A stretch of 64,000 nucleotides of DNA from Escherichia coli. Lineage in GTDB: Bacteria > Pseudomonadota > Gammaproteobacteria > Enterobacterales > Enterobacteriaceae. Of this stretch, positions 9,001-12,000 are shown piece by piece. The DNA lies in the NCBI RefSeq assembly GCF_013315695.1, contig NZ_CP054353.1, one strand, 5' to 3'. A program made the position numbers. Within the stretch, counting starts at the first letter, position 1, and every line of letters begins with the position of its first letter.

Positions 9001-12000
9001 TAATATTCGTGAACAGGCATCAGGAGCATACAGCGTTTCTTCTCGCCTCTCGGTTGATCCTCAGGCCAAAGATATCAGTCATTTGCTGGCTTTTACTTGT
9101 CAACCAGAACGACATGATGAACTGTTAACGTTAGCGAATGAAGTGATGGTTAAGCGTCTGGCTAAAGGGATCAGTGAGCAAGAACTGAACGAATACCAGC
9201 AAAACGTTCAGCGCAGCCTCGATATTCAACAGCGTAGCGTTCAACAATTAGCGAACACTATTGTAAATAGTCTTATTCAATATGACGATCCTGCAGCATG
9301 GACTGAGCAGGAGCAATTATTGAAACAAATGACGGTAGAGAATGTTAACACTGCCGTTAAACAATATCTTTCTCATCCGGTGAATACCTATACCGGAGTA
9401 TTATTGCCAAAATAATAACAGCCCCGTCAACACCTCGTTGGCGGGGATTTTAGCAATATTCGCCATTTTTATGTAATAATTTTATAAATGCGTTCAAAAT
9501 AATAGCCGAGTGCTAATAGTGATATTTTAAGGTCTGATTTTTACGTGATAATTCAGGAGGCGTAGAAAGTGCATAAAAATAACAGCATAAAACACCTTTC
9601 CACCCCCCAAGAATTCAATAATATATTGATTTTCAATGATAAAATATAATTCGCATAATATCTCGCGATAAATAACATTAGGATTTTGTTATTTAAACAC
9701 GAGTCCTTTGCACTTGCTTACTTTATCGATAAATCCTACTTTTTTAATGCGATCCAATCATTTTAAGGAGTTTAAAATGGATAAGAAGCAAGTAACGGAT
9801 TTAAGGTCGGAACTACTCGATTCACGTTTTGGTGCAAAGTCTATTTCCACTATCGCAGAATCAAAACGTTTTCCGCTGCACGAAATGCGCGACGATGTCG
9901 CATTTCAGATTATCAATGACGAATTATATCTTGATGGCAACGCTCGTCAGAACCTGGCCACTTTCTGCCAGACCTGGGACGACGAAAATGTCCACAAGTT
10001 GATGGATTTATCCATTAACAAAAACTGGATCGACAAAGAAGAATATCCGCAATCTGCAGCCATCGACCTGCGTTGCGTAAACATGGTTGCCGATCTGTGG
10101 CATGCGCCTGCACCGAAAAATGGTCAGGCCGTTGGCACCAACACCATTGGTTCTTCCGAGGCCTGTATGCTTGGCGGGATGGCGATGAAATGGCGTTGGC
10201 GCAAGCGTATGGAAGCTGCAGGCAAACCAACGGATAAACCAAACCTGGTGTGCGGTCCGGTGCAAATCTGCTGGCATAAATTCGCCCGCTACTGGGATGT
10301 GGAGCTGCGTGAGATCCCTATGCGCCCCGGTCAGTTGTTTATGGACCCGAAACGCATGATTGAAGCCTGCGACGAAAACACCATCGGCGTGGTGCCGACT
10401 TTTGGCGTGACCTACACCGGTAACTATGAGTTCCCGCAGCCGCTGCACGATGCGCTGGATAAATTCCAGGCCGACACCGGTATCGACATCGACATGCACA
10501 TCGACGCTGCCAGCGGGGGCTTCCTGGCACCGTTCGTCGCCCCGGATATCGTCTGGGACTTCCGCCTGCCGCGTGTGAAATCGATCAGTGCTTCAGGCCA
10601 TAAATTCGGTCTGGCTCCGCTGGGCTGCGGCTGGGTTATCTGGCGTGATGAAGAAGCGCTGCCGCAGGAACTGGTGTTCAACGTTGACTATCTCGGTGGT
10701 CAGATTGGGACTTTCGCCATCAACTTCTCCCGCCCGGCGGGTCAGGTGATTGCACAGTACTATGAATTCCTGCGCCTCGGTCGTGAAGGCTATACCAAAG
10801 TACAGAACGCTTCCTACCAGGTTGCCGCTTATCTGGCGGATGAAATCGCCAAACTGGGGCCGTATGAATTCATCTGTACCGGTCGCCCGGACGAAGGCAT
10901 CCCGGCGGTTTGCTTCAAACTGAAAGATGGTGAAGACCCGGGATACACCCTGTATGACCTCTCTGAACGTCTGCGTCTGCGCGGCTGGCAGGTTCCGGCC
11001 TTCACTCTCGGCGGTGAAGCCACCGACATCGTGGTGATGCGCATTATGTGTCGTCGCGGCTTCGAAATGGACTTTGCTGAACTGTTGCTGGAAGACTACA
11101 AAGCCTCCCTGAAATATCTCAGCGACCACCCGAAACTGCAGGGTATTGCCCAGCAGAACAGCTTTAAACACACCTGATAACGTTTAACGGTAACGGTGTC
11201 CCGAAACGAAGCCGTTTCGGGACAATTTCCAAAGTCTGTTCACTGGCATTAGCAACGGAAAATATTGTTCTGAATACGCTTCAGAACAAAACAGGTGCGG
11301 TTCCGACAGGAATACCGTTTTAGGGGGATAATATGGCTACATCAGTACAGACAGGTAAAGCTAAGCAGCTCACATTACTCGGATTTTTTGCCATAACGGC
11401 ATCGATGGTAATGGCTGTTTATGAATACCCTACCTTCGCAACATCGGGCTTTTCATTAGTCTTCTTCCTGCTATTAGGCGGGATTTTATGGTTTATTCCC
11501 GTGGGACTTTGTGCTGCGGAAATGGCTACCGTCGACGGCTGGGAAGAAGGTGGCGTCTTCGCCTGGGTATCAAATACTCTGGGGCCGAGATGGGGATTTG
11601 CAGCGATCTCATTTGGCTATCTGCAAATCGCCATTGGTTTTATTCCGATGCTCTATTTCGTGTTAGGGGCACTCTCCTACATCCTGAAATGGCCAGCTCT
11701 GAATGAAGACCCCATTACCAAAACTATTGCAGCACTCATCATTCTTTGGGCGCTGGCATTAACGCAGTTTGGTGGCACGAAATACACGGCGCGAATTGCT
11801 AAAGTTGGCTTCTTCGCCGGTATCCTGTTACCTGCATTTATTTTGATCGCATTAGCGGCTATTTATCTGCACTCCGGTGCCCCCGTTGCTATCGAAATGG
11901 ATGCGAAGACCTTCTTCCCTGACTTCTCTAAAGTGGGCACCCTAGTTGTATTTGTTGCCTTCATTTTGAGTTATATGGGCGTTGAAGCTTCCGCAACCCA

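Follow-up and report, generated by a model that had tools for sequence, protein, structure and literature searches.

Stabilizing hairpins between cistrons bring about differential expression within operons, as in the malE–malF REP element, the puf operon of Rhodobacter, and pap of Escherichia coli. At the ends of transcripts, stable U-poor stem-loops that have neither a U-tract nor an upstream A-tract shield the steady-state 3′ ends from PNPase and RNase II (Dar and Sorek 2018, PMC6061677). The gadBC locus of E. coli is regarded as a single transcription unit (PMC4918353; EcoCyc-based annotation). The sequence of the GAD box of this operon has been published as the GadE site (PMC4918353); in front of gadA and gadBC, the center of this 20-bp box lies 63 bp before the start site and the box lies 16 bp before the −35 element, and the RcsB/GadE heterodimer binds it (PMC2887963). 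Our literature search found no paper describing a hairpin between gadB and gadC; the early papers on the sequence and on Northern blots (Smith 1992, Hersh 1996, Tramonti 2002, 2006), which lay outside the search, may mention it. Here we describe the gadBC region of one E. coli strain, the hairpin between its two genes (hairpin 1), and an RNA 3′ end that lies at this hairpin.

The gadBC locus and its conservation

We analyzed a 64-kb stretch of DNA (the window, to which all positions refer unless stated otherwise), in which the gene order pqqL–gadB–gadC–digH is that of the E. coli chromosome. The segment 9678–11332 opens at the first base of the GAD box and extends up to the end of the spacer between gadB and gadC. 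The genes of the operon and the signals around gadC are as follows.

9777–11177, + strand: gadB, glutamate decarboxylase, 466 amino acids (TIGR01788, 692.7 bits; cut-off, 380.4)
11322–11328, + strand: Shine–Dalgarno sequence of gadC, AGGGGGA, 4 nt before the ATG, read from the sequence and conserved across Escherichia
11333–12868, + strand: gadC, glutamate/GABA antiporter, 511 amino acids (TIGR00910, 1026 bits; cut-off, 673.5)
12894–12921, + strand: intrinsic terminator of canonical form at the end of the operon, GGGAGCGA-loop-TCGCTCCC with TTTTT after it (terminator-style score, +11.7)

gadB and gadC are adjacent on the same (+) strand with 155 nt between them, and both profile scores exceed their cut-offs, so that the pair of decarboxylase and antiporter by which a gadBC acid-resistance operon is recognized is present. 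NZ_LR898874 is 99.9% identical to the region, and the genes are annotated there as pqqL, gadB, gadC, and digH. The gadBC stretch was found in 5425 of 5426 complete E. coli genomes. The earlier note on this DNA had called gadB and gadC and regarded them as a well-known system, and the profile scores, the annotation, and the literature show that it was correct. The region is the textbook glutamate acid-resistance operon gadBC of E. coli, whose operon structure, GAD box, and regulation are already known.

gadBC of K-12 (b1493–b1492) is the same locus, with identical gene order, GAD box, and core promoter. The spacers of the two strains differ by a single base change, which lies in the loop of the hairpin (AAGC here and AACC in K-12). 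There is thus no substantive difference from gadBC of K-12; this strain has an IS1 directly downstream of digH.

GAD box and gadB promoter

The following elements were located upstream of gadB.

9678–9697, + strand: GAD box, the GadE/RcsB activator site of the gadB promoter, TTAGGATTTTGTTATTTAAA, exact match at 20 of 20 positions
9714–9742, + strand: predicted core promoter, with −35 TTGCTT at 9714–9719 and −10 TACTTT at 9737–9742, placed by applying the published spacing
9731–9738: AAATCCTA, which repeats the left half of the GAD box (TAGGATTT) in inverted orientation, found by an inverted-repeat search

The claim that an exact 20-bp GAD box lies upstream of gadB was thus borne out. TTAGGATTTTGTTATTTAAA occurs once in the 64-kb window, with 0 mismatches, where about 0.02 occurrences with up to three mismatches would be expected. 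The box starts 99 nt upstream of the ATG of gadB (9777) and is the same in the gadB and gadA promoters of K-12. The block from the box to the ATG equals that of gadB of K-12, the spacing of the box matches both K-12 promoters, and the gadA and gadB promoters of K-12 share a conserved core promoter block. The GAD box is the site at which the GadE/RcsB heterodimer activates the gadB promoter, the binding itself being known from the literature (PMC2887963). When the published spacing is applied, the transcription start site of gadB would be near 9750. The inverted recurrence of TAGGATTT at 9731–9738 fits the described RcsB box, and AAATCCTA at this position is therefore likely the RcsB box.

In E. 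albertii, the GAD box has one mismatch and its spacing is unchanged. No GAD box was found upstream of the closest gadB relatives from outside Escherichia, in agreement with the restriction of GadE to Escherichia and Shigella (PMC4918353).

A perfect hairpin follows gadB

The spacer between gadB and gadC contains hairpin 1, which is listed below together with the one comparable repeat of the window.

11197–11224, + strand: hairpin 1, perfect 12-bp stem with loop AAGC (arms 11197–11208 and 11213–11224)
24997–25024: canonical terminator after bdm–sra, the other perfect repeat of at least 12 bp in the window

Hairpin 1 begins 20 nt past the gadB stop codon. Its arms are TGTCCCGAAACG and CGTTTCGGGACA, its stem has a ΔG of approximately −19.9 kcal/mol with 7 G–C pairs in 12 bp, and its tail, AATTTCCAAAG, begins with AATTTCC and has only three T. 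The earlier note had reported a perfect 11-bp inverted repeat without a T-run between the two genes: the repeat and the lack of a T-run stand, and the length has to be corrected to 12 bp.

When perfect inverted repeats of at least 12 bp with a loop of at most 8 nt were searched for, only hairpin 1 and the sra terminator were found in the 64-kb window, and 30 dinucleotide-preserving shuffles of the window yielded no 12-bp perfect repeat. Hairpin 1 is not a chance repeat. The folding of the 155-nt spacer as a whole gave a z of −4.9 against shuffles.

At an identity of at least 95%, the spacer was found at one place per genome in 5407 genomes. Since the spacer is single-copy and its sequence is unrelated to REP, a repeated extragenic palindrome was rejected as the nature of hairpin 1, which differs in both respects from the REP element of malE–malF. 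An Rfam scan of 9000–13500 (E ≤ 1) gave as its sole match a chance one, on the terminator hairpin of gadC, and blastn found no homologues of the spacer outside Escherichia. Hairpin 1 belongs to a kind of element already known and is in this sense ordinary.

An RNA 3′ end maps to hairpin 1

Mapping of transcript ends between gadB and gadC, which had been named as the check on the hairpin, is available from public term-seq data, and these contain a significant 3′ end 6 nt past the stem.

11224–11234, + strand: 3′ end of a gadB-only RNA, dominant position 11230 (term-seq; the RNA ends in ...GGGACAAUUUCC-3′)

In E. coli BW25113, the peak covers 1570588–1570598 on the minus strand of the MG1655 coordinate system, with 1570592 as the dominant position and a signal of 0.82. 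The adjusted p values of the terminus at 1570592 in three replicates were 1e-24, 1.7e-17, and 6.4e-27, and it is classified as "Alternative primary in TU" with gadB as its gene. Position 1570592 is the second C of ...CGGGACAAUUUCC and corresponds to 11230 of the window, 6 nt past the base of hairpin 1. The "Primary" 3′ end of gadC in the same table is at MG1655 1568896, just past the gadC terminator.

The end at 11230 comes from one term-seq dataset, obtained in exponential phase in LB, when gad expression is low. The terminus at 1570588–1570598 was not found in those parts of other 3′-end tables that we searched, nor was a gadB entry in the searched supplements of Adams 2021 and SMRT-Cappable-seq. 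A gadB-only RNA with its 3′ end at hairpin 1 exists in vivo according to this one dataset, and the position of the end at 11230 indicates that hairpin 1 defines the end of this RNA. The end would arise by weak termination or by trimming back to a protective stem-loop, as discussed below.

The hairpin is maintained as an RNA structure

We aligned the spacers of 12 Escherichia sequences, including K-12, four divergent E. coli, E. whittamii, E. albertii, and four further GTDB Escherichia species representatives. In these 12 sequences, no part of the spacer varies more than the hairpin region, and the pairing is nonetheless retained. Both sides have changed in 4 of the 12 pairs of hairpin 1, a count of doubly changed pairs that was reached in just 2 of 500 shuffles, and 94% of the cells of hairpin 1 in the alignment are paired, versus 30–52% when the 3′ partner is slid. 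E. albertii, for example, has GCCCCGGG...CCCGGGGC instead of GTCCCGAA...TTCGGGAC. The loop varies freely (AAGC, AACC, AATC, CACC, and CTCT). The intermediates contain G–U pairs, and these occur on the sense strand only. These observations, to which few independent lineages contribute, chiefly E. albertii and a single divergent E. coli-like genome, support the view that hairpin 1 is an RNA structure maintained in evolution.

Hairpins at the corresponding place were also found in other genera. A scan for GadC with one genome per species gave 80 loci, of which 57 have gadB upstream and a spacer of at least 50 nt. In 82% of these 57 gadB–gadC spacers from other genera, folding gave z < −2 (median, −3.4). 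As a rule, the strongest hairpin starts 5–45 nt past the gadB stop, and its sequence is unrelated between genera. In Brucella microti, the co-transcription of gadB and gadC has been shown by RT-PCR (PMC5695133), and the gadB–gadC spacer of B. inopinata has a strong hairpin 5 nt past the stop. In the acid fitness island of K-12, the junction between gadA, the paralogue of gadB, and gadX resembles that of gadB in having a strong hairpin ca. 17 nt past the gadA stop, with a 15-bp stem followed by UUGCUUAUU. However, the sequence of the gadA hairpin is unrelated to that of hairpin 1, the similarity between gadA and gadB stops 5 nt past the stop codon, and the downstream gene encodes a regulator in the case of gadA–gadX and the antiporter in the case of gadBC.

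These comparisons bear on the reading that hairpin 1 is a palindrome acting at the DNA level without a role in RNA, for example as a place where a protein dimer binds or as something left over from the recombination event that brought gadB and gadC together. The palindrome is indeed perfect, and the spacer is where the two parts of an apparently hybrid operon meet (see below). On the other hand, the pairing has been kept through sequence change, including by G–U pairs, which are C–A mismatches on the other strand and therefore argue for an RNA structure of the sense strand over a DNA palindrome. Moreover, the hairpins of other genera at the same place are unrelated, and an RNA end maps to the base of hairpin 1. 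The protein site was rejected on the covariation with G–U pairs, and we consider the purely DNA-level reading of the palindrome highly improbable.

Termination or trimming at hairpin 1

The main rival to trimming is that hairpin 1 is a leaky intrinsic terminator (attenuator), at which some RNA polymerases release at AAUUUCC and the transcription of gadC is lowered relative to that of gadB. This reading predicts the same 3′ end as trimming does, and both mechanisms can operate side by side. The mapped 3′ end lies 6–7 nt past the stem, which is the usual release distance, the stem is strong (−19.9 kcal/mol), and weak A/U pairs occupy 5 of the 8 hybrid positions (CAAUUUCC). Inefficient low-U intrinsic terminators exist (Dar and Sorek, PMC6061677), and the equivalent hairpin carries a T-run in Yersinia, Serratia, Comamonas, and a Citrobacter sp. 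These account for the only 5 of the 57 spacers in which a run of at least four T follows a G–C stem. With the hairpins after gadC as an internal control, at least five T in 8 nt were counted after 10 of 57 gadB hairpins and after 18 of 56 gadC hairpins, a difference that is a trend only (p = 0.08).

Hairpin 1 shares with intrinsic terminators a stable G+C-rich stem and an in vivo 3′ end a few nucleotides past it. In contrast, it lacks the U-rich tract of 7–8 nt after the stem (tail, AAUUUCCA): the stem is followed directly by two A and then by only three U. This TTT is not conserved in Escherichia, where AATTCC, AAATTCC, and AAACTCC are found instead. The d'Aubenton-Carafa-style score of hairpin 1 was −24 to −34, the gadC and sra terminators scored +11.7 and +0.6, and our terminator scan did not report hairpin 1. 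We therefore regard leaky termination as a possible but rather unlikely main function of hairpin 1.

Another possibility is partial Rho-dependent termination, either upstream of gadC or inside it, by Rho that has loaded on the untranslated 155-nt spacer; the RNA would then be trimmed back to hairpin 1. The length of the spacer and its lack of translation would allow this, and the steady-state ends of Rho-dependent transcripts are set by U-poor stem-loops (PMC6061677). However, C does not outnumber G in the spacer: the C/G ratio is 0.6–1.0 across 11178–11395, and there are just 9 YC dinucleotides in 108 nt. In addition, the strong Shine–Dalgarno sequence of gadC, 4 nt from the ATG, should let ribosomes reload fast. 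Because of the absent C-over-G excess, Rho-dependent polarity is the less likely explanation, and we give it little credence.

Trimming was favored since hairpin 1 has no U-tract and matches the class of stem-loops described by Dar and Sorek (2018, PMC6061677). Like these, it is stable, has neither a U-tract nor an upstream A-tract, and has a steady-state 3′ end immediately downstream, which are properties of a protective 3′ stem-loop. It differs from them in being located inside an operon instead of at its end and in having no rut-like C>G bias downstream.

Other elements of the spacer

Between hairpin 1 and the Shine–Dalgarno sequence of gadC, two further elements were noted.

11231–11258, + strand: block AAGTCTGTTCACTGGCATTAGCAA, invariant in 12 of 12 aligned Escherichia sequences
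11265–11289, + strand: hairpin 2, perfect 10-bp A/U-rich stem with a 5-nt loop (arms 11265–11274 and 11280–11289)

Over the invariant block there is a weak sigma-70-like match (TTCACT, 16 nt, AATATT), which agrees at 8 of 12 positions by eye. As this best candidate for an internal gadC promoter is under the threshold of the scan, such a promoter was rejected. The promoter scan of the spacer found no canonical promoter and gave one match, which overlaps the gadC start codon. Binding of CsrA or GcvB near the gadC leader was considered by eye and dropped for want of evidence.

Hairpin 2, which had not been recorded before on this DNA, ends 43 nt before the start of gadC and has a ΔG of −10.2 kcal/mol. 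Its conservation is weaker, with one compensatory pair and with mismatches or a deletion in several Escherichia species. The reverse complement of hairpin 2 has a terminator-like score on the minus strand, which is probably incidental.

A proposed 3′–5′ exonuclease barrier between gadB and gadC

Taken overall, the best explanation is that gadBC is activated by GadE/RcsB and that hairpin 1 acts mainly as a barrier to 3′–5′ exonucleases, so that GadB is made in excess over GadC; we put the probability of this reading at roughly 55%. Transcription from the gadB promoter would pass through gadB, the 155-nt untranslated spacer, and gadC to the terminator at 12894–12921. Longer transcripts would end or be cut further downstream, by cleavage in the A/U-rich spacer or through decay of the gadC part, and a 3′–5′ exonuclease would then trim the RNA back to the stem of hairpin 1 and halt there. 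Hairpin 1 acts in the RNA, as the 3′-terminal stem-loop of the gadB-only species ending at 11230. The gadB segment would build up relative to the gadC segment, which would be supplied by read-through molecules, and one promoter could in this way give the soluble decarboxylase in excess over the membrane antiporter.

Hairpin 1 resembles the hairpins of malE–malF, puf, and pap in its position after a promoter-proximal, highly expressed gene and before a gene for a membrane protein, and by analogy the upstream message of gadBC would be expected to exceed the downstream message. The suggestion of the earlier note that the hairpin may modulate the gadB:gadC expression ratio agrees with all the evidence gathered here. 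From its position at the mapped end of the gadB-only RNA, hairpin 1 probably favors the enzyme and helps to yield more of it than of the transporter.

Apparent hybrid origin of gadBC in Escherichia

The two genes of the operon have different closest relatives. GadB of E. coli is 75–86% identical to the decarboxylases of Salmonella enterica subsp. salamae, Yersinia rohdei, Serratia, and Brucella inopinata. The antiporter downstream of these four relatives belongs to a different NCBIfam family, TIGR03813, and is 32–33% identical to GadC of E. coli (TIGR00910), and in three of the four (Salmonella salamae, Yersinia, and Brucella) a glutaminase comes next after it. GadC of E. coli, for its part, is 76–80% identical to antiporters of Yersinia, Hafnia, Providencia, and others, whose upstream decarboxylases are just 56–61% identical to GadB of E. 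coli. Across the GadC-related loci of other genera, the linked decarboxylases are 78–93% identical among themselves and 57–61% identical to GadB of E. coli, and GadC of E. coli fits into their antiporter group as an ordinary member at 70–78%. Yersinia rohdei has both operon types (loci L009 and L088). Within our sample, a decarboxylase of the first lineage and an antiporter of the second are combined only in Escherichia.

Judging from these identities, we lean toward the view that gadBC of Escherichia is a hybrid operon, of which the hairpin-bearing spacer would be the seam. The accessible portions of a 2018 survey treat the gene arrangement of E. coli as an exception, and these portions do not describe a mixed ancestry of gadBC (PMC6250119). 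A strong hairpin after the decarboxylase gene is present in most operons of the GadC lineage; of the few operons examined from the GadB lineage, about half have one. This suggests that the hairpin after the decarboxylase gene is a generally needed device for setting the output of enzyme and transporter, which was kept or rebuilt after the fusion.

Implications

An unequal output of GadB and GadC would matter for gadBC cassettes engineered to produce GABA. For a heavily studied operon whose regulation is usually described at the promoter only, the conserved stem-loop together with the mapped RNA end points to a post-transcriptional element. Hairpin 1 offers a simple account of how a very abundant soluble enzyme and a membrane antiporter may be made in unequal amounts from one promoter, and the apparent hybrid origin of gadBC bears on the assembly of the glutamate and glutamine acid-resistance systems.

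Hairpins in the gadB–gadC spacer and after gadA

The spacer between gadB and gadC carries, downstream of hairpin 1 (the stem-loop that follows gadB), two further features:
11231-11258, invariant block of 28 nt, AAGTCTGTTCACTGGCATTAGCAA
11265-11289, hairpin 2, a perfect 10-bp A/U-rich stem whose 3′ edge lies 43 nt before the gadC start

The block was unchanged in all 12 aligned Escherichia spacers, including that of E. albertii, whereas the hairpin adjoining it varied across these spacers. A weak promoter-like match (8/12 positions) overlaps the block. The structure of hairpin 2 was weakly conserved, and on the minus strand its reverse complement received a terminator-like score.

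The gadB–gadC spacers of other Enterobacterales were also compared. The distance from the end of the first hairpin to the gadC start was fairly constant (52–59 nt) in many of them. In loci L026, L028, L029, L030, L034, L036, and L037, the post-gadB hairpin is followed by another, small hairpin (ATCAGT-loop-ACTGAT), which lies ca. 25–45 nt upstream of gadC and precedes its ribosome-binding site. These loci are mostly from Providencia and Proteus, with one from a Klebsiella sp. and one from an uncultured Enterobacteriaceae MAG.

In K-12, the similarity between gadA (locus L082) and gadB stops 5 nt past the stop codon (TGATAAC). Like gadB, gadA has its own strong hairpin positioned after the stop codon, but its sequence is unrelated to that of the gadB hairpin:
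ca. 17–60 nt after the gadA stop codon, upstream of gadX (L082), 15-bp stem ACCGAAUGCCCAGCU...AGCUGGGCAUUCGGU, then UGCUUAUU

Other features of the window

14494-15191, IS1 element directly downstream of digH, with 91-aa and 167-aa IS1 transposase ORFs
24997-25024, perfect 12-bp inverted repeat between bdm-sra and maeA, then TTGTTTTTAT

In NZ_LR898874, a 99.9% identical genome, dosP is truncated by the same IS1. Apart from hairpin 1, the window has no perfect inverted repeat of 12 bp other than the one at 24997-25024. Because it is followed by TTGTTTTTAT and located between bdm-sra and maeA, this repeat is a canonical intrinsic terminator. Public K-12 data list a 'Primary' sra 3′ end near its counterpart.

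Ancestry of Escherichia gadBC

E. albertii has kept the GAD box with one mismatch and identical spacing. No GAD box with three or fewer mismatches was found upstream of gadB in Salmonella salamae (L089) or Yersinia rohdei (L088), whose gadB genes are the closest relatives outside Escherichia.

Elsewhere, the E. coli GadB lineage has a TIGR03813 antiporter gene downstream, encoding an antiporter 32–33% identical to E. coli GadC. Four such loci were compared (Salmonella salamae, Yersinia rohdei, Serratia, and Brucella inopinata), and a glutaminase follows this antiporter in all but the Serratia locus. E. coli GadC belongs to TIGR00910, and the decarboxylase encoded upstream of this lineage elsewhere is only 56–61% identical to E. 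coli GadB. Both operon types are present in Yersinia rohdei. From these gene arrangements and identities (loci L009 and L088 of Yersinia rohdei, L089, L092, and L093), Escherichia gadBC (window 9777-12868) appears to be a hybrid operon of mixed ancestry.
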